IMG/VR virus record: IMGVR_UViG_3300025108_000042
Coordinates: 1 to 63,213 of that record
Reading direction: 5' to 3' (one strand)
Origin: a virus
Lineage: Duplodnaviria > Caudoviricetes
Length of the DNA: 63,213 nt
Shown here: positions 8,195 through 58,451 of the stretch, piece after piece
Layout of the letters: each line of letters opens with the position of its first letter
How positions within the stretch are numbered: position 1 is the first letter of the stretch
Program-made: the position numbers and the translations under genes
Notes under the pieces: model-generated
The model's database searches: none
The model's input: the letters and a program-made list of their open reading frames with translations, nothing else
What the model was told of the DNA's origin: nothing

Positions 8195-11100
8195 TTAATC
8201 AAAATATTCTTTAGGGAATTTATCACTTACATCAAGGTTGTTTAAAATGTAAGACTCTTCGTAATCATCAAAATTAGTTTTAATAATTTTATTTACTTCT
8301 ATCATTTTCTGAGTGTTTCCTTTATAAGCAGCAACTTTAACTACCGAATAATACATTTCTCTTACATCATCCAATATTTTCTTTCTGTGCTCCGGATAAT
8401 CCGTAGTAAGGTAATTCTCATCAAAACTTCTCTTATAGCCTTTAACAGCATATCTAAATTGTTGCACTAAGTCGTACTCATAGTCGCGCACAAAAGCCCT
8501 TTGAGCAATAAGCTTTAAAGTCTCCTTTGGTACATTTACTTTTTCTAGGTTAAAGTCTTTTGGATTTAAACCCTGTAGCTTTAAATATCTTTCAGCTCTT
8601 TCTATCTCTTCATTTTTTCTAGAAGCGTCTCTGTAAGAAGATGTTATTAAAGAAGGTAGAAACTGAGAGCCACCGTACTTAGCCATGTCCATAACACGTT
8701 TAAATGCCGGGTCAGAAGGGTCTGATATTGATCTTCCGTAAACATCTTCGTTTTTAGCCAAAGAGGTTAAAAGATTTACAGCCATGTTAGGCTGTATTGC
8801 ATCACCTAAAATTCCAAAGTAACCACCAAACCCAAACACCTCAGCGTAAGGATCAAATCCGGTGTAGTCATATACACGAACTTTTAAATCATCATCAACA
8901 GATTTAACCCATACCTTGTGGTTTTTTAGCCATCCTGGTCTAACAACAGTTGCATTTTCAAACATCTCTGCTTGTTTTTTTCTTTGCTGTTCTGTCTCTT
9001 CTTCGTCATCAAATCCTAGCATACCAAGTATGCCCCCGTAAGCATATGAAACAGATTTAATTATAGCGTAAGGACCAGATACTCCTACCCATCCAAGACC
9101 GGTAAGTTTTCTGCGGATATCTTTTCTGTATTCTGATTTCTGCTCATCAGATAAAGTATCGTCTGACATTAATGTTTTAATATCATCTCTTACGTTTGCT
9201 ACAATTCTGTATGTACTTCTAAACGCTTCAAAACGGAATCCTTGGAAATCACCAATAGGCATTCTTTGTACAGCTTTACCAAGCTTAGTAATCCTACCCC
9301 ATGTAGGAGTGTTGTCTTTTACACGCTCGGCAGCTTGCGCTCTTACTTTTTTCTGCTGTGCATCATTTAAATTAGCGTATTCGTCACCATAAAGTTTCTT
9401 AGCGAACGACTCCCTTTCGTTTTGATAGATAGACATTTTACCAAAGTCATCAATTGCAGCGTAAGTAGACCCTAGATCTGCAATAACTTTTTTACCCATG
9501 TTTCGTACCTTACCTACATACTTATCGTAGAAAGATTTATCCCCAGTTACGGAGAAATAGTATGAGAATCCAGAAAGACCAATTTGATTTACATTAAACG
9601 ATTGACCTATCGCTCCATTCTCTGCAAGCTCAGTAAGCATGTCCATGTATTTTTGATCTCCATTTAGGATACCTTCAGCCATAGACTTTATATTCTTAGC
9701 TTGTTTTGTAGGGTTAAACCATCCGTTAGCCCAGTTAAAATACATTGTACCTATAACGTTCTTACCCCATGTCGGGCTATTCAATATAACGTTAACCATA
9801 CGTAGGTTCTTCAATGCAAAGAAGTAACCACTCCAGAATCCACCCGCTAAACCATCTTTATCAGTTTCGTAAATAGGTTTAGACTGTATGATTTCAGTAA
9901 TATCATTATGAACCCACTTCGTGTTTAAAGGACTCATAGGGTCATTAATCTGCTTGTATGTAGCCTTTTGTCTTTCTTTAATTTTATTATTAGAAATAAT
10001 CATTGGCTCCTGACTAACGCGGTCTAATATCAGTTTCTTCTGTGGCTTAGTAAGCTTAGAGAAATCTTTATTAAACTCTTCTTTAGCGTAAACATCTTTT
10101 AGGTTGTCTTCTATACCATCAGCAATCATTTCAACCATCTTACCTTTTTCGTAGATGTTAAACAGCACCTCACCTGTTGCAGCCATCTGTGCAATAGGGT
10201 CTTTAACCTCACCAAGAAGCTCTCTGATATGTACTGGTAGATCTTTCTTTTCTAAGAAGGCACTGTTAGGAATGTTTGTTCCCTTACCTTGAGCTCTCAT
10301 CTTTTTTCTGTTATCAAGAAGCTCGGTATATTCTTTAATAAGGTTGTCGATGTTTCGCTTAGACTCATCTAGAAGCAACTCTCTCTTAGAGTATCCTTTG
10401 TTATCACCTTTTGTAGCTTTTAACAATGTAGACTCAATAGCTTGTTCTCTGGTATATCCAGCCTCGTTAATAAGCTTGTTGATCCAGTTATTGTAAAGAA
10501 CTAAAAACTCTTCTTCTACAGCTTTGTTTCGCTCGTTCTTACCTAGATTTAAATACTTACCTAAAGATCCAAACTTAAACTTGTAAGTAGGGTCATCAAA
10601 AAACCTGTAAGAGCGGTGCATATATGTACCAATATTCTCTAATATGTTTTCCTTTGTTTCTTTAGGCAACTTAGAGAATGTACTATCTGTTACTAAAGCA
10701 GCAGATTTTTCGTCTATAATGGCACGAACAGCCCTTAAATTCTTAAGTATACGCTCACCGTTTTTCAACTCAAGTATATCATCAACAACAGCTGATTTGT
10801 CAGCCTCCATCATAAACCTATTGGCTAACCCTCTTGCTTTAACAATATACTCAGTGTCTATACCTCTTTTCTTGCGGCTCACCCAGTTACCACCAAGGTC
10901 ATTATTCAGCTCTCGTAAAATCTTTCCTAGACCCTTCATACCTATAGAGACTTTAGAAGATCTTATCTCTTCCATTTTAATAATCTCTTTCTGTACTTGG
11001 TTCCATTTAAAACCTTTAATCTTTTCTAAAGCAGATTGCAGTCTTGATGGATAGTCTAATTCTTCGTCTGTTGGAGGCTCATACCCTTGTTTTTCTTTAA

Positions 11101-14100
11101 ACTCTGGGGTACTTTCCTCTATTGTTACGTAATCAACACTTCCTTCAAATATAGAAACGCCAGTACTTGCTTGATCAATAACCGGAGTATCACTCATTTT
11201 TTTCACTGCACTTGCAGTGCTTGATACTTTTGGATCTTCGCTTGGTCCTACTAAAATTGCACTACGACCATGTCTACCAGCATCTACAGCAATTGTTCTT
11301 GCCCATTCGGCAGCTGATATACTAGGGTCTACAAAAGCAAAGTAAGTTGGGATTAAAGCCTGGTCTAATATAAGGTGACCAAACTTTCCGCTATTATTAA
11401 TTTTTAATTTGCTTAAGAATTTTGCAAGCTTTATGCTGTCTAATAAAGGAGCAGGTCTTTCTGAAAACGGCTCGTATAATTCTTTTCTTGAGAATGAATA
11501 TACCGGAGCTGGAACAATGTTTTCCGGCTTCTTGGTATCTGGTTTACTTGATGTTCTATCATTAAAGGTCGCAAACTTACCGCTATCTAGATTAATAATT
11601 ATACCATCTAACAGTGTAACTCCAGGTACTGATTTTATATATTTTGAAAATTTGCGATAAACATTTAAGTCTCCAGAACTTTCCTTTAAATTACCAGAAG
11701 GGTGGTTATGAATAAAAGTCACAAAAACCTCTTCTCCTTTTAAATCAAATCTAGCAGCATCTATAAGCCCACCAACTTGTATCATATCAACTACAGCTGA
11801 ATTTTGAGTACCTGTTCCGAGCCAAATGGTTTTATAATCCCCTTTTTTGGTACTAACCACAAGGAACATGTTTTCAGAAGTAGCTGACTCAAGATGACGC
11901 AATAAAAACGCGACATCACTAGGACCGTTTATCTTCTCTGGACCGGTAAGGCTAAAAGCCTCATTCTGTTCGTATATTCTTTGCTGTAGAGTAAACTCTT
12001 CAGTTTTGTTTTTAGCTACCATAGAGCTTTTAAAACGTATTGGTCCGAGTTGTTTACTGTTTACTACTTGGGTTTTTTGATCAGTATAGGATCCAGAAGG
12101 CGCTGCATCTGTTCCTGTAAGCTCTTCTGTCTTTGGATACTTAACAGCTATAACCTCTTCATCTTTTGTCAAAGCTTCAAACCCTAGTCTCTTGGCTACA
12201 TTCTCTTCTGTTTCGTTAAAAGCTTTGGCGACAGCTGACACATATTGTTTTACTACATCTAAACCCTCTTTCCTTAGGTCTTTAATATCTTGTATTAGTG
12301 TGCTTTCAGTTGCGTAATCGCTAAAACTATCCGCATCAAACCCATCCATTACAAGTCTCTTAGATCCTTTACCTTTACTTAAAGCATCAAACGCTTTGGC
12401 TTGTGTAATGAGGTCAAATCCATACATCCCATTATTGCCCCACATTACTTGATTTACTTTCTTTGGATCAAATTTTCCAGTAACACTTTTTTTAAGCCAT
12501 GGATTAGCAAGATTCTGGAAGTAGTCTTCCTCTAAAGCTGATACAGCCTCAATGCCTTTTAAACCTTTGTACTTAAAATCAAGAACATCCTTTACACCTT
12601 TAGCAGCTCCCTTGTCTGAACCATATATCATTACATTTTCAGGTGCATCCTTAGTGCGTTTTCTCTTTGGGTTTTTGTCGTACCCGCCTTCATAAATATC
12701 TAATCTTATAGATATTCCACTACCAAGATTCATTATCTTTTTAGCAACTTCCCACCATTCTTTATTAGGTACTGTAAATTCAACGCCTTTACCTTTTTCA
12801 AAACTATAAAAGTTATTAAGATCTTCTGCTGAAGGAACAAAACCTTTAGCTATTTCAGCCTCCTCTTTAGTCAGCTTAACACCAGCAATAATCGTTTCTT
12901 CTTCTTTAATATCCTTTTCAGTGTAATTTTTTAGTTTAGAAAACTCACTGTCATCCATCTGCTTAATAGCATCAGCAAAAGTCAAAACCTTGCTTACGCC
13001 ATCAATAGTTACAGTGTCATATAATATTTTATTTACACCAATATCATCAGCTACACTTTTAATGTATTGCTTAATAGTATTAATCGCTTTTTTGCGAGAG
13101 TCAATAAGTAGATCTTTAGGTCTAGTTTCTTCAGACATACTATTTATAGACCCGTTGTAGCTTTCTACTAATTCAACAATCTTCTTCTTTACTTCCTGAA
13201 TATTATTCTTCTGATATTCTGGACCTATAAAGCCATATTTAGTTTTTGGGTTTGAACCCTCAAGGAACTTTTTATTTTTAGCACCTTTTTCATCAGCTTC
13301 TATTACTATACCAATACCGAACTCGCCAATATCCTTCATTTTTTCTATGTCAGATTCTGACTTCAAGCTTATTGCAGAGACAGTCTCAGCATCAATAATA
13401 TCTTGCTTGTTAGGTATAGACTTTTTCTTTGGCTGTGCTTTTTGCTCTGGCTTAGAGAAAACTTTTTGCTCTTGTTCTGGAGCTTCTTCTTTTTTTAATC
13501 CAGCGTCTATTAGAATTTGATCTTTAGTAAACTTAGAAGAGTTTGCAGTATACTTACTTAAAGAACCACCAGCCTTCAGGCTGCTTAGAATGTCGTACTG
13601 ACCACTACCTCTGTTTATAGGAATAGCCTTCCATACTCTTTTAGGGTATATTTCTCTTCTTCCAAAGTATTCTACCCTGTCATTCTTCATTCTATACCTT
13701 TCAATACTGTCTAAAGGTTTTGATACAAGCTCGCTTTTTGAAGTTTCTTTTCCTCCGTTAAGTACTTTTTGTTTCTGTATCTCAGTATTTATAATAGCAG
13801 CAGTAACAAGTTGAATAAACTCATCTGGGTTCATTTTACCTGTTATGGTTTTGGCGTAGAACTCTTCCTCGTTTCTGTAGAACGGAGCCTTATTACCAGA
13901 CATTATCTCCTTTCTTACCATAAGGCGAGATGCAATGTCTAATTCTAAATCGGGTAACGGAGCTCCTGTTGTTCTTATACTAGGTATAGTTCTACCCTCA
14001 AGTTCCTTATTTATTTCACGCTTTTTATCTAAGTCGCTTTCATCATCCTCTTTTTTTGCTGCTACCTCAGGTTCAGGCGCTGCCTCTGGTTGAGATTCCT

Positions 14101-16375
14101 TCTCTGTGGATGGAGCTACTTCAGCTTTTATTTCTTGTTCTGGAGCTTGCTTAGTATCTGGAGCTGTTTCTGGAGTGGGAGCGACTTCAGTTTTTGGAGC
14201 CGGGGCAAGCTGTTGGTTGATTTTTTCATCTTGTTTAGCTAAATTTTCTAATTGCTGTTCTAATTCTTCTTGCTCGTACTGGCTTGTAATAATGTTGTAA
14301 GCAACCTCATCGCCTATATTACCTCTAAAGGTCCTTTTAGTGCCGTTTGCTGCATCTAAATTAACAGATACTATATTTCCTTGCTCGTCACGGTTAATTG
14401 CTGCTAGAGGGTCGCTATAGTTGTTCTGATATTGCTCACCACGAATAGTGATATTGTTACCATCAATCGATACAATCTCCTCAGCTTTTGCCAGTCCAAG
14501 CTCATCAGCAAATTTGCCGTTAAGATCGTCTATATTTCCAAGCTCAATTATATCCCCATCGTCAGTCAACAAAGATCTCTTGCCAGCTCCTTCATCAATA
14601 ATACGACCAGCAACTTGCTTGCCCGAAGGAGACTTCATAGTTACGCGACCTTCAATAAGGTCTTCAAATCGATCTGGTTGTACCGCTTTGTCTACTTCTA
14701 AGTCAATGGTAACTGGAGTAGGTTCATCTTCTGGTACAAATGTTTCTTTTGGAGCAGCCGGTTTAGTTTCAACTGTGCCAATTATATCTGTTTTCTTTTT
14801 ATTAAGCTCTAATTCTAATTTCTCAATTTGAGACTTGATTAAATTAGCAGCCGTTTCTGACTCAGTACCCTCTAATCTCTGCTTCTTGTCAAGAATAACA
14901 GCTTCAAGGTTTCTAATCTCATCAATCTGTTCGTCAGTAGCTTTTTTAATAAGTGCGTTCTCTTCATCGCTACGATACCTAGATTCAATTTCATCCTTCT
15001 CAACAAAAAGCTCTACAGCTTCTGTTTGTAAAAGATACAGTTGAGAATCGTCAGAAGTAAGTTTTCTTTTCTTAGCAATGTTGTTTAATGCGTTATCAAT
15101 ATCTCTGATTCTTTTTTGGTCCTCAGTAGAGAACTTACTAAAGAACTCAACGTCTTGATCAATCAATGTACGCAATGAAGATATATTCTTATTGATCATG
15201 TCATCAATAACATTTACTTCTTCTTGTGAGGCTTCTTTCTTCTTTTCCTCTAGCTCTTTTAGCTGTTGTGCTTTTTTTGCACGAGCTTTTTCGTTCTTAA
15301 TAGAACCACGAGCGCTCATTCCGTTTGCTGTTACAATTGTACCGCCACCGGCAGTCATACCTATTAGAAAATCGTCAACAAGCTTATTTACATCAAAAGG
15401 TTTTCCTTCTTTAACTCCAACGACCATCTGGTCAAACGAGTTTACCAAAGCTTCCTCAAAGCCTTCTTCCAATCCGCTTTTAGCCAATTGCTTGTATATG
15501 TCACTCGCTTTTACACTCTGTATAAAAGATTGTCTGTATGCTTCAGTGGAAGCCTGTTTAGAGAATATCTTTCTAAATGCCGCAAGGTCGGCTCCCCCCA
15601 TTTTCTCTGCCAATCCCTCTACAACACCTGCTGCCGTAGCAAACATTAGTTTCTCTGACGGAGAATACACTGGATTATTTTCAATCTCACGATACTTATT
15701 ACCACCAGCACTTACAGCAACTACACCTATACCTGTTGTAGCAGCTAAGGCAACCGAAGGTATAGCCTCTGTAGCACCACTAACCAATAAAAAAGCTGAT
15801 TTAGATATTTTACCATCTTGCGCTAAACCTACAATCCCTCTTTCAGCCTCCTCTTTAGTAATGCCAGCATTTGTATTACGAGTATTTCTATAGAATTCTG
15901 CGTTAGCAGCAAAGGTATCTGCGGCTTTTTCTATAAAGTTAGGATCTTCAAGTGATGTTATTGATTCAAATAAAGGACTATTGAATCCACCCGGCATTCC
16001 AGAAGAGCGAGCAAAATCGTAAGCCATATTAGCGTAGTCAAGTATACCGCCTACAACACTATTAGATCCACCTACTAATTCTGATAAAAAAGGAGTCTTT
16101 GCCGCACCTCTAGCAAAAGCGCGATCAGCCTCTTTAAGAGACTCAAAGAAAGGATTTGGCGGTGTTTCAACCTCTGTAGATACTGATGGTCCAACCAAAG
16201 ATTCTCCAGCTGTAGCTTCTTTTTTTTTTGGAGCGTAATCTACTTGCCCCTTGTATACAGGGTACTTCTCTAATATTGCGTCAACCAATACAGAATCTTC
16301 GTATTCGTTATACTCTGGATACTTAGCCTTTATCTGTGATGCAAAATCCTGTACAGAGAGTTTATCTTGAGGCAT
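8195..16375 (-). CDS. Giant internal virion/ejection protein (2726 aa) with an embedded JAB/RadC domain
   Basis: Size and position after the tail genes; E...IHNHPSGNLKESSGD...LLDGII motif. Confidence 0.75.
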   Translation of the reverse strand: MPQDKLSVQDFASQIKAKYPEYNEYEDSVLVDAILEKYPVYKGQVDYAPKKKEATAGESLVGPSVSTEVETPPNPFFESLKEADRAFARGAAKTPFLSELVGGSNSVVGGILDYANMAYDFARSSGMPGGFNSPLFESITSLEDPNFIEKAADTFAANAEFYRNTRNTNAGITKEEAERGIVGLAQDGKISKSAFLLVSGATEAIPSVALAATTGIGVVAVSAGGNKYREIENNPVYSPSEKLMFATAAGVVEGLAEKMGGADLAAFRKIFSKQASTEAYRQSFIQSVKASDIYKQLAKSGLEEGFEEALVNSFDQMVVGVKEGKPFDVNKLVDDFLIGMTAGGGTIVTANGMSARGSIKNEKARAKKAQQLKELEEKKKEASQEEVNVIDDMINKNISSLRTLIDQDVEFFSKFSTEDQKRIRDIDNALNNIAKKRKLTSDDSQLYLLQTEAVELFVEKDEIESRYRSDEENALIKKATDEQIDEIRNLEAVILDKKQRLEGTESETAANLIKSQIEKLELELNKKKTDIIGTVETKPAAPKETFVPEDEPTPVTIDLEVDKAVQPDRFEDLIEGRVTMKSPSGKQVAGRIIDEGAGKRSLLTDDGDIIELGNIDDLNGKFADELGLAKAEEIVSIDGNNITIRGEQYQNNYSDPLAAINRDEQGNIVSVNLDAANGTKRTFRGNIGDEVAYNIITSQYEQEELEQQLENLAKQDEKINQQLAPAPKTEVAPTPETAPDTKQAPEQEIKAEVAPSTEKESQPEAAPEPEVAAKKEDDESDLDKKREINKELEGRTIPSIRTTGAPLPDLELDIASRLMVRKEIMSGNKAPFYRNEEEFYAKTITGKMNPDEFIQLVTAAIINTEIQKQKVLNGGKETSKSELVSKPLDSIERYRMKNDRVEYFGRREIYPKRVWKAIPINRGSGQYDILSSLKAGGSLSKYTANSSKFTKDQILIDAGLKKEEAPEQEQKVFSKPEQKAQPKKKSIPNKQDIIDAETVSAISLKSESDIEKMKDIGEFGIGIVIEADEKGAKNKKFLEGSNPKTKYGFIGPEYQKNNIQEVKKKIVELVESYNGSINSMSEETRPKDLLIDSRKKAINTIKQYIKSVADDIGVNKILYDTVTIDGVSKVLTFADAIKQMDDSEFSKLKNYTEKDIKEEETIIAGVKLTKEEAEIAKGFVPSAEDLNNFYSFEKGKGVEFTVPNKEWWEVAKKIMNLGSGISIRLDIYEGGYDKNPKRKRTKDAPENVMIYGSDKGAAKGVKDVLDFKYKGLKGIEAVSALEEDYFQNLANPWLKKSVTGKFDPKKVNQVMWGNNGMYGFDLITQAKAFDALSKGKGSKRLVMDGFDADSFSDYATESTLIQDIKDLRKEGLDVVKQYVSAVAKAFNETEENVAKRLGFEALTKDEEVIAVKYPKTEELTGTDAAPSGSYTDQKTQVVNSKQLGPIRFKSSMVAKNKTEEFTLQQRIYEQNEAFSLTGPEKINGPSDVAFLLRHLESATSENMFLVVSTKKGDYKTIWLGTGTQNSAVVDMIQVGGLIDAARFDLKGEEVFVTFIHNHPSGNLKESSGDLNVYRKFSKYIKSVPGVTLLDGIIINLDSGKFATFNDRTSSKPDTKKPENIVPAPVYSFSRKELYEPFSERPAPLLDSIKLAKFLSKLKINNSGKFGHLILDQALIPTYFAFVDPSISAAEWARTIAVDAGRHGRSAILVGPSEDPKVSSTASAVKKMSDTPVIDQASTGVSIFEGSVDYVTIEESTPEFKEKQGYEPPTDEELDYPSRLQSALEKIKGFKWNQVQKEIIKMEEIRSSKVSIGMKGLGKILRELNNDLGGNWVSRKKRGIDTEYIVKARGLANRFMMEADKSAVVDDILELKNGERILKNLRAVRAIIDEKSAALVTDSTFSKLPKETKENILENIGTYMHRSYRFFDDPTYKFKFGSLGKYLNLGKNERNKAVEEEFLVLYNNWINKLINEAGYTREQAIESTLLKATKGDNKGYSKRELLLDESKRNIDNLIKEYTELLDNRKKMRAQGKGTNIPNSAFLEKKDLPVHIRELLGEVKDPIAQMAATGEVLFNIYEKGKMVEMIADGIEDNLKDVYAKEEFNKDFSKLTKPQKKLILDRVSQEPMIISNNKIKERQKATYKQINDPMSPLNTKWVHNDITEIIQSKPIYETDKDGLAGGFWSGYFFALKNLRMVNVILNSPTWGKNVIGTMYFNWANGWFNPTKQAKNIKSMAEGILNGDQKYMDMLTELAENGAIGQSFNVNQIGLSGFSYYFSVTGDKSFYDKYVGKVRNMGKKVIADLGSTYAAIDDFGKMSIYQNERESFAKKLYGDEYANLNDAQQKKVRAQAAERVKDNTPTWGRITKLGKAVQRMPIGDFQGFRFEAFRSTYRIVANVRDDIKTLMSDDTLSDEQKSEYRKDIRRKLTGLGWVGVSGPYAIIKSVSYAYGGILGMLGFDDEEETEQQRKKQAEMFENATVVRPGWLKNHKVWVKSVDDDLKVRVYDYTGFDPYAEVFGFGGYFGILGDAIQPNMAVNLLTSLAKNEDVYGRSISDPSDPAFKRVMDMAKYGGSQFLPSLITSSYRDASRKNEEIERAERYLKLQGLNPKDFNLEKVNVPKETLKLIAQRAFVRDYEYDLVQQFRYAVKGYKRSFDENYLTTDYPEHRKKILDDVREMYYSVVKVAAYKGNTQKMIEVNKIIKTNFDDYEESYILNNLDVSDKFPKEYFD

Positions 16376-43593: not shown

Positions 43594-43610
43594 GTTACAA
43601 AGGTACTAAT

Positions 43611-53024: not shown

Positions 53025-53172
53025 TCTTCTTACAGTTTTTTGCTTCAGAACAATAGCATATTTCATCGCTACCACAAGCAAATGGATGCTCTGCTGTTGT
53101 TTTTATACCCGCTATTCGGTGTAACATACTCACTAACAGTACAATGCCTAATAGTATAATAATTCCTGTCAT
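53014..53172 (-). CDS. 52-aa membrane-anchored Cys-rich peptide, first late gene
   Basis: MTGIIILLGIVLLVSML...CGSDEICYCSEAKNCKK; promoter 5 nt upstream. Confidence 0.55.
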   Translation of the reverse strand: MTGIIILLGIVLLVSMLHRIAGIKTTAEHPFACGSDEICYCSEAKNCKKNEG

Positions 53173-53840
53173 AGATACAAAGATAATCAATATAATGCTA
53201 CAGCTGTTTGTGTCAAATGAGACTTGATAATGTCATTTATTTTTACTAACTTAGCATTGTGATTGAGATCAAACGCATGATTGAACTCATGTTCTTAAGT
53301 GAATCAGTTTATAGTTCAGAAATAAACTAATCCAAGTACAGAGTGCCAAATCCCAATTAAGGCACACTCTAAAATTCACGTTAAACACTACAATACGCCC
53401 TAACTATACCTGTTTCTGAACCACGCGTTCAGTCCCAGAGATCCCCTTACAACAGCTGTTATTAGTATTGCATACACAGTGTCCACTACCTAACAGATAT
53501 ATCCTATACACCCCCGCAAATCCATACTCTGAACCCAAACAACAACTTTCTGCACTTTACAGCAATCTATTGCCCCGAAAAATACCCCAGAAATATCTAC
53601 CTAGGGGATTATATATATAGTCTACCGATAGAAACCGCGCACCTAAACCGATATCCAGACCACCCCCGCCCGACCAGCTGACCGCCTTTGTGCACTTTTT
53701 CAGCTTTTAGCACCGTTTACTGCCTGTCTGGCGATCTTTGTTCTACCTGTTTAGTGATCAATACCAACCCTTGCACCTCCAGACAACCGAAACAACCGTA
53801 TAGCTCCTATGTAGGGCATTTACTGTCGTATCTGGGGCAA

Positions 53841-53904
53841 CACCTAACCAGCTGACGAGCTGACCGGATTAAGAGCTTACGAGCTGACCAGCTGACGAGC
53901 TCAG
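53841..53904. repeat. Tandem 8-bp array (C/G)AGCTGAC
   Basis: cacctaac cagctgac gagctgac cggattaa gagcttac gagctgac cagctgac gagctcag; one extra copy at 53675. Confidence 0.85.
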
Positions 53905-53934
53905 GTAGTGTTGAATTCTTTTTGTTGCGTTCGT

Positions 53935-53964
53935 TTTGTTTATTCACATTTGTTTATATATTGC
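53935..53964 (+). promoter_or_regulatory. Putative early promoter (TTTG, 18 nt, TATATTGC)
   Basis: Near-consensus Bacteroidota -33/-7 elements upstream of the structured leader. Confidence 0.5.
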
Positions 53965-54010
53965 AATTCAGTAGAACGGTCAGCCGTTCACGTTCTTTGA
54001 CATTCGGGAA

Positions 54011-54147
54011 AGTTAAAACAGATCTGAAGAGCTTCAGTAGTGCGAAGCCAGAGCGCCAGTGATGGCGCCAGGACTTAATAAGTTGAAACCTATGAACGGG
54101 CACACGTTCAAAGCAGGTGCGAAAGCTCCTGCGGTTATCTGTTAACT
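54011..54147 (+). ncRNA. Hammerhead-ribozyme-like RNA (type I topology with its first site; enzyme strand 54011-54090)
   Basis: AACAGAU 54017-23 pairs with AUCUGUU 54137-43; AGUU pairs with AACU across an AA bulge; CUGAAGA 54024-30; GAAACC 54085-90 pairs with GGU; GUU triplet. Stem II is atypical. Confidence 0.7.
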
Positions 54148-54165
54148 AATTTAAAACTTTGACAA

Positions 54166-54417
54166 ATGGAAACATTGACAAATTATGACCATGCACAGTT
54201 AGACCTTGCAACCGGTCAACACCGTACACACGCGCAATTCTTAGAAGTTATGGACTCAGCGTTTCATGGTGTATACTCGCAAGCAAAAGCACAGTATAAA
54301 GAATTTTGTTTTGATCCTGTGAGCTACATTGAACACATAGATGAATATTGCGAAGGATTGGTGAATGATAATGTGAAAATTGAACTACTCACTCAGCTCG
54401 TTTACATTATAGACTAA
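54166..54417 (+). CDS. Early hypothetical protein
   Basis: Bounded by repeat elements. Confidence 0.8.
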   Translation: METLTNYDHAQLDLATGQHRTHAQFLEVMDSAFHGVYSQAKAQYKEFCFDPVSYIEHIDEYCEGLVNDNVKIELLTQLVYIID

Positions 54418-54478
54418 AAAAGGGGAGCGCTTACGGGCGCTCCTTTGGTTATCTGTTAACTAATTAAAAATCATTAAA

Positions 54479-54715
54479 ATGAATGATTCAAAGAAACTCT
54501 GGCACGTTCAACAACTGCACATGCTGGAAAGGTCAAACCCTTATTCGTACGGTTCTTTTGTGTTTACCAGCTCAGGCGAAATATTCACAGTTGATGAAGC
54601 GGTTGACATTTGGGAGGACATCAAAGAAGAAGGACTTTTTTACGGTGTGAATTGGGAAAGCGAGTTATGGAGCGAAAGCGGTATACAAATACCAGCCGTT
54701 TATACTGAACACTAA
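54479..54715 (+). CDS. Early hypothetical protein
   Basis: Bounded by repeat elements. Confidence 0.8.
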   Translation: MNDSKKLWHVQQLHMLERSNPYSYGSFVFTSSGEIFTVDEAVDIWEDIKEEGLFYGVNWESELWSESGIQIPAVYTEH

Positions 54716-54774
54716 GATGAAGAGCGCCAAATGGCGCTCTTTTGGTTATCTGTTAACTAATTAAACTCACTAAA

Positions 54775-55071
54775 ATGAAGGTGTACAACGTATACAAGGC
54801 AAACGAGGAGCTATACATGACATTTCAAAGCAAAACTGAAGCGGTTGACTTTATAGAATATGGAGCCGCAAGTGTTTTTAGCGAAGAGGGCTTTTATTTG
54901 GAGGAGGCGCTTATTTGTAAATGCGGTAACGATAAAGAAGTTATGGAGCGTTTTGATGCGTACGGCTACGCAACCGGTGATTGGTGCAATACGTGTTATG
55001 AAAACGGAAAATATCCATACAGGAAAGATCGTTACTACGACTACTTTAACGCTGGGGAAAGATTAGAGTAG
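54775..55071 (+). CDS. Early protein with a possible Zn ribbon
   Basis: CKCG...WCNTCY. Confidence 0.8.
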   Translation: MKVYNVYKANEELYMTFQSKTEAVDFIEYGAASVFSEEGFYLEEALICKCGNDKEVMERFDAYGYATGDWCNTCYENGKYPYRKDRYYDYFNAGERLE

Positions 55072-55122
55072 AAAAGAGCGCCATTTGGCGCTTTGGTTAT
55101 CTGTTAACTAATATAAATAAAG

Positions 55123-55578
55123 ATGAAAACTACAGTATTTATCGGGAAAGCTGAGGTAAAATGGAAAGCAAAGAAGAACCCAATAGAGCACAAAATTAGA
55201 AGCTCAAGGGATGCTTACAATTTATTAAAGGCACATATCGGAAAAAAGATATTTGAACAAGAGCTTTTTATTACTATGTATATGAACAAGGCGAACACCG
55301 TATTATGGATTGAAACCATAACTCAGGGATGCGGTGCTTCGTGCTCTGTAGATATCCCAGCAATAACAAGAAGAGCTATAGAGGGAACGGCACACGCGGT
55401 AATTGTCGCGCACAACCACCCGAGCGGTAATAAAAACCCCAGTGAGAACGACAAAAGAGTAACTAAGAACTTAAAGAAAGCGATTAAACCATTTAACATA
55501 GAAGTGTTAGACCATATTATCGTTTGTGGGGATGGTTACTACAGTTTCGCTGACAATGGCGAACGATCGTTAGCTTAA
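55123..55578 (+). CDS. radC: RadC-like JAB domain protein
   Basis: QELF...AHNHPSGNKNPSENDKRVT...VLDHII. Confidence 0.9.
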   Translation: MKTTVFIGKAEVKWKAKKNPIEHKIRSSRDAYNLLKAHIGKKIFEQELFITMYMNKANTVLWIETITQGCGASCSVDIPAITRRAIEGTAHAVIVAHNHPSGNKNPSENDKRVTKNLKKAIKPFNIEVLDHIIVCGDGYYSFADNGERSLA

Positions 55579-55638
55579 TTTATGAGGAGCGCCAATGGGC
55601 GCTCTTTGGTTATCTGTTAACTAATTTAATCAAACACT

Positions 55639-56355
55639 ATGAAGAATAGAGTTGTATTTACTATACCTGAAAAGGACATTATAGTTGTAATACGTAAGGG
55701 CAAGACCACAAACAAGAAGATTACAAACGGTGCACCACTGGTGCAAACGTACACATTCAGCACTGCTCAATGGACTTTAGCTTCCACCAGTAAAGGCTTC
55801 GGGATGAAGAAATTCTTTGCTTTGGATGGTTCCAATTGCTTAGACTGTCCATATAGTGGAAACAAAGGTAAAGGCGGTTGCTATACACACAAGTTTAACC
55901 AATATGTAGGCTTTTTGTCTATGCTACGTAGCATTAAACACAATGAGCTTACACCACTTACAAGGGACAAACAACAGAAAATTATTGAGCTTTCGTTTAA
56001 TAGTTATGTAAGATTTGGGACATATGGCGAACCATCCTTAATGCCTTTATCTGTTGTTGATGCTATGGTATGGAATGCTAAGACATGGACTGGTTATACG
56101 CACCAATGGGAAAAAGAATGGGCGAACAGTTATAAAAACTATTTTATGGCTTCTACGCACAATCAAACAGAAAGTAAAAGAGCCAAAACAATAGGCTATA
56201 GATCATTTGTTTCTGTAATACCTGACAAAAAAGTTACCGGTATAAACTGCCCAGCATCTAAAGAGCAAGGCTACAAAAGTAACTGTGAAAAGTGCGGGTT
56301 ATGCTCAGGGGTGAAGGGCAAAGGAAACAAGGATGTATGGATTATGGAGCATTAA
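55639..56355 (+). CDS. Cys-rich Gp88-like (possible Fe-S) early protein
   Basis: CLDCP...CY, VRFGTYGEP, TGYTHQW, CPAS...CEKCGLC. Confidence 0.6.
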   Translation: MKNRVVFTIPEKDIIVVIRKGKTTNKKITNGAPLVQTYTFSTAQWTLASTSKGFGMKKFFALDGSNCLDCPYSGNKGKGGCYTHKFNQYVGFLSMLRSIKHNELTPLTRDKQQKIIELSFNSYVRFGTYGEPSLMPLSVVDAMVWNAKTWTGYTHQWEKEWANSYKNYFMASTHNQTESKRAKTIGYRSFVSVIPDKKVTGINCPASKEQGYKSNCEKCGLCSGVKGKGNKDVWIMEH

Positions 56356-56407
56356 AAAGAGCGCCACTGGGCGCTCTTGGTTATCTGTTAATATAAGTTA
56401 TAAAGCA

Positions 56408-56665
56408 ATGAAAAAGAATGACTACGAACTAAGTATAGAATACAGGGAGCGTTTCGCACTTAATAAAGGCGAACGTTACTGGATGCAAGAAGCAATTGAT
56501 TTGTATTCTAAGATGGCTAAGGAAGAGCTGGAACACGAAATAGAACAAGGTAAAAGACCGGTAATAGCTCCAGCTTTTTTTGATGGATTATTTAATACTA
56601 TAAGCGGTAAGCTTGATGCTTGGATGCAAGAAGAAAGAACTGTTCTTCAAGACTCGGAAGAATAG
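56408..56665 (+). CDS. Early hypothetical protein (start revised)
   Basis: First ATG after repeat 6. Confidence 0.75.
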   Translation: MKKNDYELSIEYRERFALNKGERYWMQEAIDLYSKMAKEELEHEIEQGKRPVIAPAFFDGLFNTISGKLDAWMQEERTVLQDSEE

Positions 56666-56743
56666 TTAATGATTGGTTAACGGTAGAGTCAAAAGGAGCG
56701 CCATTGAGCGCTCCTGGTTATCTGTAAATTTAAACAATGTATT

Positions 56744-57244
56744 ATGAACAGGATTAATTATTGGATTAAGGAAAAATTAGGCTTAATCGATAAAGGGGGG
56801 GTGAACAGGATTAATTATCTATTAATGAAAGTAGATTACCTGAGCACCGAATTGCACATAGCTAAAGAGCAAATACTTAAGCTTGAAAAAGATGTTAGCG
56901 GTATTCATGATGAGCAACACGAAACAAGGGAGACCGTATCTAACAACGAGTACGCAATAGACAGTGTGAAAAGTGATTTAGAAAATCATAATGTTCCGTA
57001 TCTGTGGGAAATCGTAGATAATAACAAAGATTATATAAAGAACCTTGAAGTACCTGATGAATACAACATTAGGGAGATTATAAAATTAGAACTGGATGCT
57101 CTAAAAGGGACTAATGACTCACAAGAGACAATAGGAGGTGATAGTATAAGTAATGAACGATTGATTACCGGTATTGTAAGAAGTGAAATTGCACAGTACA
57201 ACAAGTTTATTGTAGATGCATTGAATGAGAAATCATTTGATTAA
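56744..57244 (+). CDS. Early coiled-coil protein
   Basis: Bounded by repeat elements. Confidence 0.75.
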   Translation: MNRINYWIKEKLGLIDKGGVNRINYLLMKVDYLSTELHIAKEQILKLEKDVSGIHDEQHETRETVSNNEYAIDSVKSDLENHNVPYLWEIVDNNKDYIKNLEVPDEYNIREIIKLELDALKGTNDSQETIGGDSISNERLITGIVRSEIAQYNKFIVDALNEKSFD

Positions 57245-57298
57245 TTATAAGAGCGCCACTGGGCGCTCTTGGTTATCTGTTAATTAATATATATAAAG

Positions 57299-57499
57299 AT
57301 GAAACACCAGTATGGAACAGTGTACGCTGAGGCTACGCTAAAAGTTCGTGTAAAGTTTAATACGTATCTACACGATGCAGAAGAGTATGAATACGTTATG
57401 GATGCTATGTATAACGGGGACTTTGATTTTATAGAAATGCCTAAAGTTGATAGCTTTAAAATCGAGAATGTAAGAACGTTTGAAGAGAAGGAGTTATGA
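57299..57499 (+). CDS. Early hypothetical protein
   Basis: Follows repeat 8. Confidence 0.75.
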   Translation: MKHQYGTVYAEATLKVRVKFNTYLHDAEEYEYVMDAMYNGDFDFIEMPKVDSFKIENVRTFEEKEL

Positions 57500-57762
57500 C
57501 AAGGTTTGAACAGGATAAAGAGACTATTTTTCGTTACATAGACAGTAAAGGATCAAGACCAATGAGTAGGGCTTATTGGAATTTAGTGGTGAGCATACGC
57601 GATGTAGGGTTGTTCTGTGAGGGAATAGCACCTAACAGACACTGGAGACTTAAACACGTTAAAGAATATTTCGGAGTAAAAGGAGGTAAACAAAAGATTT
57701 ACGACCAGTTAAACGAAATGCTTGATGACTATAGAAAAGAATTAGGGTATGAGACAGTGTAG
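57496..57762 (+). CDS. Early hypothetical protein
   Basis: ATGA coupling to the upstream ORF. Confidence 0.75.
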   Translation: MTRFEQDKETIFRYIDSKGSRPMSRAYWNLVVSIRDVGLFCEGIAPNRHWRLKHVKEYFGVKGGKQKIYDQLNEMLDDYRKELGYETV

Positions 57763-57961
57763 TGAAACCGGAGAGGTGATGTATGGTGGTTGGGTGATTT
57801 GTGATGATATCTATATCAAGTATGAAAAGGATTTAGACAATTATTTGCTTGAATGGGCAAAAGATGATGGTCTACATAATTTCAACATTGAATGGCTAAG
57901 AGATTATTATTACAACAGTGAGATGTTCTACTACACAACGTGGTACGAAGAAGAAGATTAA
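57749..57961 (+). CDS. Early hypothetical protein
   Basis: RQCSETGEVM..GW...YYTTW. Confidence 0.7.
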   Translation: MRQCSETGEVMYGGWVICDDIYIKYEKDLDNYLLEWAKDDGLHNFNIEWLRDYYYNSEMFYYTTWYEEED

Positions 57962-58013
57962 TTAAAAGCGCCACTGGGCGCTTGGTTATCTGTTAATTTA
58001 AAATATAAAGATT

Positions 58014-58148
58014 ATGTATACAGACAATATGTATAGCAACGAGTACACTGAGGCTCTTGAGGACTTTGAATGTTTTGTAAGAAACATATTAGATAGCGAA
58101 GATTTGACTGATAAAGAAAAAGTTGAAACAATTAAAAAACAATTATAG
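58014..58148 (+). CDS. 44-aa early protein (not in ORF track)
   Basis: ATG at the usual distance after repeat 9, open to TAG. Confidence 0.7.
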   Translation: MYTDNMYSNEYTEALEDFECFVRNILDSEDLTDKEKVETIKKQL

Positions 58149-58151
58149 ACT

Positions 58152-58388
58152 ATGAAAGTATTTACATTAGTACAAATTATTGAAAGAGACTGCGATGTAA
58201 AAGTAGAATCTTTTGCTACACTACAAGAAGCTATGAAATTTCAAGACAAGCTAACCAGAGAATTTATACAAGACTGGGGCTCTGTAAAAATTGACTTCGC
58301 ATTTGAAGAGAACTCCTCTATCTTTTTTATGGAGTCTAAGAATGGTAGTACTGACCAACAAATAGTAATCAAAGAAACTGAAATATAA
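58152..58388 (+). CDS. Early hypothetical protein
   Basis: ORF in the operon. Confidence 0.75.
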   Translation: MKVFTLVQIIERDCDVKVESFATLQEAMKFQDKLTREFIQDWGSVKIDFAFEENSSIFFMESKNGSTDQQIVIKETEI

Positions 58389-58451
58389 ATAGATTGAAGT
58401 AAAAGGTGCGTTGCACCTTGGTTATCTGTAAACAATTTAAAACAATTTATT

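Follow-up and report, generated by a model that had tools for sequence, protein, structure and literature searches.

A candidate hammerhead ribozyme variant with an inserted two-hairpin domain in the early leader of an uncultured podophage

Here, we propose that in an uncultured podophage, probably of Flavobacteriaceae, a conserved structured element in the presumed 5' leader of the early operon is a new architectural variant of the hammerhead ribozyme that would cleave in cis at 54136|54137, a reading to which sequence comparison leads us to assign a probability of about 0.55. Positions 54024 to 54090 of the window (the whole virus record analysed, 63,213 bases with a completeness rating of 100%) would hold the catalytic core and the "stem II" region of this self-cleaving RNA. 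The core would be formed by CUGAAGA (hammerhead positions C3-A9) and GAA-A (G12-A15.1), with the last of three consecutive hairpins, H3, serving as helix II, and the first two, H1 and H2, forming a conserved insert between A9 and G10.1. Stems I and III would form with the first copy of a repeated intergenic motif, placing the predicted cleavage after U54136. More tentatively, we propose that one leader hammerhead may cut itself free at this first site and then cut nine other GGUU|AUCUGUU sites in trans.

The phage and its early region

Matches to PHROGs identified a portal protein, a large terminase, virion structural and tail-fibre proteins, a primase/helicase and an exonuclease in the window. 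The terminase is 41-49% identical to those of the Flavobacterium "elemo" phages (41%), of Cellulophaga phages and of the uncultured podophage MW202828, and since these matches include phages of Flavobacterium and Cellulophaga, the host is probably a member of the Flavobacteriaceae. A blastn search of positions 53100-54500 against cultured phages returned no match. The leader element sits in a gene-free stretch of about 1 kb that separates divergent gene blocks, bordered by minus-strand genes ending at about 53081-53190 and by small plus-strand genes from 54166 onwards, and the cumulative GC skew turns within the same stretch. A promoter-like box on the plus strand (53957..53964), which we take to be a Bacteroidota -7 box with the consensus TAnnTTTG, would start the leader transcript near 53970; the box reads exactly TATATTTG in four of eight aligned relatives, and the window has a near match to it.

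Directly before this box lie approximately seven tandem 8-nt units NAGCTGAC (53846-53904), with a separate copy of the unit at 53672-53684, 174 nt upstream of the array, and a similar run in the relative G003. The array may represent iterons for a replication or regulatory protein. Elsewhere in the window, a 2726-aa open reading frame on the minus strand (8195-16375) carries a RadC/JAB-like stretch (phrog_10276, residues 1482-1596), and a 151-aa early gene on the plus strand (55123-55578) matches the same family.

Anatomy of the leader element

All parts of the element lie on the plus strand. The predicted leader opens with a 5' hairpin, H0 (53974..53989), in which 79% of alignment cells are paired and two pairs are changed on both sides, and which was flagged as terminator-like. 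Between H0 and stem I, the stretch ACGTTCTTTGACAT (53991-54004) is kept in all eight leaders aligned; it also occurs near 43610 in the distant MW202828, a phage without the hammerhead-like element, and may act as a signal in the DNA. The 5' strand of stem I (54011..54023) consists of a distal AGUU (54011-14), a bulged AA (54015-16) and a proximal AACAGAU (54017-23), and is complementary to AUCUGUU and AACU at all 10 copies of the repeated motif. The end of this arm and the start of the core form an 8-nt palindrome, CAGATCTG (54019-54026), through which two leader RNAs could pair or which could serve as a DNA site.

The first core strand, CUGAAGA (54024..54030), is identical in 8/8 sequences and is followed by H1 (54031..54048), a 5-bp stem (GCUUC 54031-35/GAAGC 54044-48) under an invariant 8-nt loop AGUAGUGC, and then by a linker CAG(A/U) (54049..54052) with invariant CAG. 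H2 (54053..54068), the second hairpin of the insert, has a 6-bp stem (GCGCCA 54053-58/UGGCGC 54063-68) and a GNRA-type loop, GUGA. The candidate helix II, H3 (54072..54084), is a 5-bp hairpin directly 5' of GAAA, made of GACUU (54072-76) and AAGUU (54080-84) with a G.U closing pair. The second core strand GAA (G12-A14) and the ACC that would provide the 5' strand of stem III occupy 54085..54090, with A15.1 at 54088, and are identical in 8/8 sequences. Further downstream, H4 (54093..54110) folds in 8/8 sequences and carries a conserved loop GCACA, under which the relative G001 has a wholly different stem, and H5 (54113..54132), the GC hairpin of site 1, abuts the GG of that site. Site 1 itself (54133..54147) comprises GGU (stem III 3' strand), U54136 (position 17), and AUCUGUU plus AACU (stem I 3' strand). 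The invariant loop of H1 (54036-54043) contains GUGC and the invariant loop of H4 (54099-54104) contains GCAC; by their complementarity, the two could form a 4-bp kissing contact.

The helix junction assembled in this way carries the full core consensus of a hammerhead: CUGAAGA at 54024-30 agrees with the CUGANGA of C3-A9, GAA is followed by an A15.1-U16.1 pair in which A54088 faces U54135, and the unpaired nucleotide 17 is U in the window, is C at site 1 of three relatives, and is U or C, hence not G, at all 49 distinct sites collected. A helix II joining A9 directly to G12 with a G10.1-C11.1 closing pair was absent from the element, where the 41-46 nt of H1 and H2 intervene; this insert (54031-54071) measures 41 nt in the window and 46 nt in G001, and is made of two covarying hairpins. 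With H1 and H2 in front of H3, helix II would be replaced by three tandem hairpins without a closing helix, which would make a multi-helix junction. No Rfam hammerhead model recognised the element: the whole window gave no hammerhead match at gathering score, a search of 53300-54500 at E up to 10 gave no hammerhead and, on a site hairpin, just a weak match to sbrA, and a check for truncated hits in 54069-54160 gave no match. Since these models heavily penalise large inserts, we regard the missing match as weak evidence against function.

Relatives, covariation and the register of stem II

We aligned eight distinct sequences, namely those of the window, G001, G002, G003, L180, L182 (cut at its 3' end), L183 and L184. 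G003 was found via a neighbouring 406-aa protein with 84% identity, G001 and G002 came from a pattern scan of viral contigs, and the four L sequences came from a metagenome scan. Matches in the viral-contig scans were mostly chance (three real among at least 100 stretches, three real of six, and three real of 36), the metagenome scan gave eight matches of which five were real and one was the same contig as G003, both matches of a genome-contig scan were chance, and a scan for the motif alone yielded no new phage among the matches listed. Six of the seven relatives were first found with patterns that demanded CTGA(N/A)GA, the H1 loop and the CAG linker, so the invariance of these three features is partly by construction, and a relative with a mutated core would be missed. 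GAAACC was in no retrieval pattern, the stem I arm, H2, H3 and H4 were absent from those of three scans (the ones with at least 100, six and eight matches), and both GAAACC and the arm AACAGAU are identical in 8/8 sequences. The family is shallow, with eight sequences at 75% mean column identity, and no relative with a different target motif was found among those retrieved.

The inserted helices are supported by this alignment. All five pairs of H1 are changed on both sides, as are two of the six pairs of H2 (which also has G.U pairs in G001) and three of the five pairs of H3, with 100% of cells paired in each of the three hairpins. The 9 + 2 pairs of stem I (98.4% and 78.6% of cells paired) and the three pairs of stem III (100%) include none changed on both sides, and since all of these pairs are invariant, the alignment lends stems I and III no covariation support, which weighs neither in their favour nor against them. 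Over the whole structure, 93.8% of cells are paired, compared to 88.0% in shuffled alignments, and 12 pairs are changed on both sides, compared to 4.7, with 0/500 shuffles reaching either value; pairing in slid controls was 23-42% of cells. The G.U pairs of H1-H3 read correctly on the plus strand only. Protein-coding readings of the region, 53922-54062 on the plus strand or 53954-54103 on the minus strand, were rejected on the compensatory stem changes and on indels of 5 nt and 1 nt.

An earlier, sequence-only reading of the window had placed three hairpins between CUGAAGA and GAAACC, all of which proved correct in their coordinates and are present in the minimum-free-energy (MFE) fold, and it had left two registers for stem II. 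The register with H3 as stem II and a 41-nt insertion after A9 fits 8/8 sequences: H3 abuts GAAA in every one of them, with a closing pair that is G-C in six and G.U in two. The other register, with GAAG (54044-47) as the core strand behind a 2-bp stem II (54031-32/54042-43), can be drawn in the window, as can the pairings that were thought to accompany it, namely docking of 54048-61 on substrates and a switch in which CUGAA pairs with UUCAG (54033-37) and hides the core. It does not carry over to the family, and we consider it very improbable. GAAG, which is the 3' arm of the covarying H1, occurs in one of eight sequences (the other seven have GGGG, CUAG, GGAG four times, and GGAA), the 2-bp stem is lost in five of eight, where it becomes AC/GC or GU/GC, and the middle A-U pair of the core-hiding helix (alignment columns 88/95) is present in one of eight with no covariation. 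An expanded loop II made of H1, or of the entire insert, was also considered and rejected: such a loop is without a closing helix, G54031/U54084 would be followed by C/U, and G003 has A/C.

The proposed docking segment, CCAGAGCGCCAGUG (54048-61), is indeed complementary to the 3' arms of the substrate hairpins. H2 resembles the repeated substrate hairpin in the same sense, and because the resemblance is to the 5' arm of that hairpin, H2 is complementary to the 3' arms by construction; plus-strand copies of 54048-61 with three mismatches occur at 56356 and 57248. Docking through this complementarity is contradicted by the relatives, as the segment is changed in 7/7 of them while the substrate arms are not. 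A54052 is U in the other seven sequences. The H2 stem has become GCGUUA/UAACGC in both G002 and L184, and G001 has GCGCGAGGU/ACCUUGUGC, while the substrate hairpins of these three keep GAGCGCC/GGCGCUC. What endures of the sequence-only reading of a hammerhead variant with a docking or regulatory domain is a conserved structured RNA with a complete core consensus, and what falls is docking by H2; the insert may still have a regulatory role.

Predicted folds and chance expectation

Unconstrained MFE folds of all seven full-length sequences, as well as the RNAalifold consensus, contain the helix between the leader and site 1 together with H1-H5, and the folding z-score of the window sequence is -4.3. 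In both kinds of prediction, the core CUG is joined to the invariant CAG linker, and the hammerhead-compatible fold lies 2.9-5.1 kcal/mol above the MFE. These features count against the hammerhead reading, as do the length of stem III, only 3 bp, and its competition with an extension of H5 in four of seven relatives. As a cleavage triplet, GUU is also slower than GUC. A relaxed type I descriptor (minimum lengths of 6 bp for stem I, 4 bp for stem II and 3 bp for stem III, with an insert no longer than 50 nt) had a single match in the window, which is this element, as well as matching 6/6 relatives tested, and it matched once in 300 Markov simulations of the window.

A repeated motif as candidate substrate

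A GC-rich hairpin followed by GGTTATCTGTTAACTAA recurs in 10 copies between 54133 and 58436, all on the plus strand, compared to 0.39 expected by chance, and one copy precedes each early gene or gene group. The AACAGAU before CUGAAGA and the ACC after GAA are antisense to GGU-U-AUCUGUU with a single U left unpaired, and on the predicted pairing they are laid out as in a hammerhead that holds its substrate. From GAAACC to the nearest copy downstream is 43 nt, and the topology in cis would therefore be that of a type I hammerhead. In the window, stem I would pair 54017-23 with 54137-43 and, beyond a 2-nt bulge, 54011-14 with 54144-47, and stem III would pair 54088-90 with 54133-35, leaving 54136|54137 as the predicted scissile bond. 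In general form, stem I would consist of AACAGAU/AUCUGUU, a bulge of 2-3 nt and 3-4 more pairs, and stem III of ACC/GGU.

The nine further copies, each a GC hairpin with GGUUAUCUGU(U/A)AA (54447..58436, plus strand), start at 54447, 54744, 55095, 55608, 56379, 56716, 57271, 57984 and 58420 and are candidate trans substrates. Each of them has U at position 17, and across all 10 window sites all three pairs of stem III (3/3) and 6-7 of the 7 proximal stem I pairs can form. Among the 49 distinct sites of the window and six relatives, the unpaired position 17 is U in 42 and C in seven, and never A or G, and the conserved block (positions 0-14) matches the footprint of the two arms; the regular expression behind these sites fixed part of the other positions, and mismatch-tolerant searches gave the same sites. 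The predicted cut lies 24-29 nt before the next ATG at nine of the 10 sites and 17 nt before it at one.

From this arrangement, we tentatively propose that the leader, released or still attached, cuts the nine other GGUU|AUCUGUU sites, and that these trans cuts would yield monocistronic mRNAs, each with a 3' hairpin and a leader of 24-29 nt. As part of the same tentative proposal, the H1/H2 insert would clamp the complex, perhaps via the kissing contact between the loops of H1 and H4, and the GC hairpin belonging to each substrate would stack on stem III, which is 3 bp long. Weighing against this, the GGUU left at the 3' end of the ribozyme by cleavage in cis would be a competitor of the trans substrates.

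Alternative explanations

The main rival, which we consider less likely than the hammerhead, is that the element is a structured leader RNA without catalytic activity; the junction would then resemble a hammerhead by chance, and the repeats would serve as terminators or as sites for a protein RNase. Such a leader might work as a processive antiterminator, like HK022 put or EAR, and carry RNA polymerase through the ten terminator-like hairpins; alternatively, it might regulate the repeated motif by antisense pairing or through a bound protein. The position of the element directly downstream of the promoter-like box suits this explanation, and eight of the 10 site hairpins with their GGUUAUCUGU tails scored as terminator-like, with 12 such sites between 53800 and 58700 compared to 2.4 expected. 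It would also be in keeping with the missing Rfam hammerhead match, with the burial of part of the core by CUG/CAG pairing in the MFE folds, and with the conservation of the site hairpins in sequence as well as in structure, as recognition by a protein would predict. The podophage MW202828 points the same way. It has a different repeat, GUGUCGUUAACGACAC, with the palindrome GTGTCGTTAACGACAC, in 14 copies between 43747 and 55156, most of them before early genes, and a scan of this genome for an equivalent leader found no hammerhead-like leader, so the repeat may have a function that needs no ribozyme. (Most of these GTGTCGTTAACGACAC copies lie approximately 20-40 nt before early start codons with no preceding GC hairpin, and the MW202828 repeat and the window motif have GGT..TC.GTTAAC in common.) However, a leader without catalysis leaves unexplained why two arms split by a 64-nt domain should leave exactly one unpaired U or C, and why the junction should have the exact combination of CUGANGA, GAA and an A-U pair that the descriptor met once in 300 simulations. 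Put-type antitermination, moreover, requires no complementarity to terminators, and the resemblance to put or EAR elements lies in the setting alone, a leader followed by terminator-like hairpins, with no Rfam match.

Signals acting as DNA offer an improbable explanation, in which operators or phage-specific promoters would be provided by the repeated motif and by its inverted half-copy within the leader, and the hairpins would be cruciform or hairpin promoters in the manner of N4. The palindromic nature of CAGATCTG, the GTTAAC within the motif, and the MW202828 repeat, a perfect 16-bp palindrome centred on GTTAAC, are consistent with this explanation, as are the near-constant distance of the motif from start codons and the 8-nt iteron array just upstream. 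Against it, the site hairpins are more stable as plus-strand RNA at 45 of the 49 distinct sites, and their plus-strand folds include 55 G.U pairs that become A.C mismatches on the other strand, which argues that they act as RNA. G.U pairs are used in H1-H3 as well, all 10 copies of the motif lie on the sense strand, and a PHROGs scan of 32 proteins turned up no RNA polymerase. The hammerhead variant cleaving in cis is the most likely reading of the leader element.

Comparison with known systems

The element has the same core nucleotides in the same order as the type I hammerhead (Rfam Hammerhead_1; CUGANGA / GAAA / NUH), and on the predicted pairing likewise has an open stem I, a stem III closing on the cleavage strand, an A-U pair adjacent to the site, and U or C before the predicted cut. 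It differs in that two covarying hairpins (41-46 nt) without a closing helix split A9 from helix II, in that its stem III is 3 bp long and encloses two hairpins, and in that no Rfam model scores it.

The closest comparison within this phage group comes from the elemo phages. In the first 34 kb of elemoA, we found a canonical-looking type I hammerhead on the minus strand between two early genes (NC_055852.1, 17291-17371), which matches RAGATH-1-hammerhead (RF03152) with 27.8 bits and an E value of 0.0099, below the gathering score of 56.3. The element is conserved across the 68 records that matched, each of them a Flavobacterium phage on host BAL314, and on the opposite strand the same stretch is annotated as a hypothetical CDS. 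Like the window leader, it is a type I arrangement in the early operon of a Flavobacteriaceae podophage, and its stem II and GAAAC (GACUU..AGUC-GAAAC) resemble H3 and GAAAC of the window; in contrast, its core is continuous and it has a single, unrepeated cleavage site, no repeat copies of the elemoA cut site having been found. Since elemoA carries a canonical-looking hammerhead, hammerheads in early operons are plausible for this phage group.

Cutting between early genes has a known protein-based counterpart in T7, whose early mRNA is processed by RNase III, a host protein, through double-stranded cleavage at hairpins between early genes. In both phages, a hairpin lies between each early gene and monocistronic mRNAs with 3' hairpins would result; unlike the window leader, T7 processing is without guide-like complementarity. 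The antisense arms around the core recall the Haseloff-Gerlach design, in which trans-cleaving hammerheads are reportedly engineered with antisense arms flanking the core opposite an NUH site, a design that is synthetic, whereas the window leader is natural.

Multiple hammerheads flanking genes in phage-related polycistronic RNAs, as well as small insertions in the hammerhead core, are described by Perreault et al. (2011; PMC3088659). The window leader resembles these systems in the proposed cutting of a phage-type polycistronic transcript between genes; they have a complete cis ribozyme per cut, whereas the leader would combine one core with ten substrate sites. In engineered minizymes, an unpaired linker stands in for helix II, generally with less activity than standard hammerheads (PMC544870); the likeness to the leader is that helix II is replaceable by another connector, with the difference that minizymes are synthetic. 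New hammerhead permutations have likewise been described (PMC10085705). In the literature searched, we found no natural multi-site trans hammerhead, no precedent for a multi-hairpin insert of 41-46 nt at the A9/G10.1 step, and no report of hammerheads in Flavobacterium or Cellulophaga phages.

Conclusions

If the leader RNA cleaves, the definition of the hammerhead would widen: an entire domain of two hairpins would be tolerated at the A9/G10.1 step, and a multi-helix junction could include helix II. More such variants may exist, because model-based searches miss them. Should cleavage in trans also hold, the leader would be the first natural guide-like hammerhead, with one core for many substrate sites, and a protein-free counterpart of T7 RNase III processing, as well as a natural scaffold for the design of trans-cleaving ribozymes. 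If the RNA does not cleave, it would still constitute a new conserved class of leader RNA tied to an intergenic signal repeated ten-fold. For the biology of the phage, multi-site cleavage by a single leader would explain the way in which stable messages for single genes are made from one early transcript in a Bacteroidota phage.
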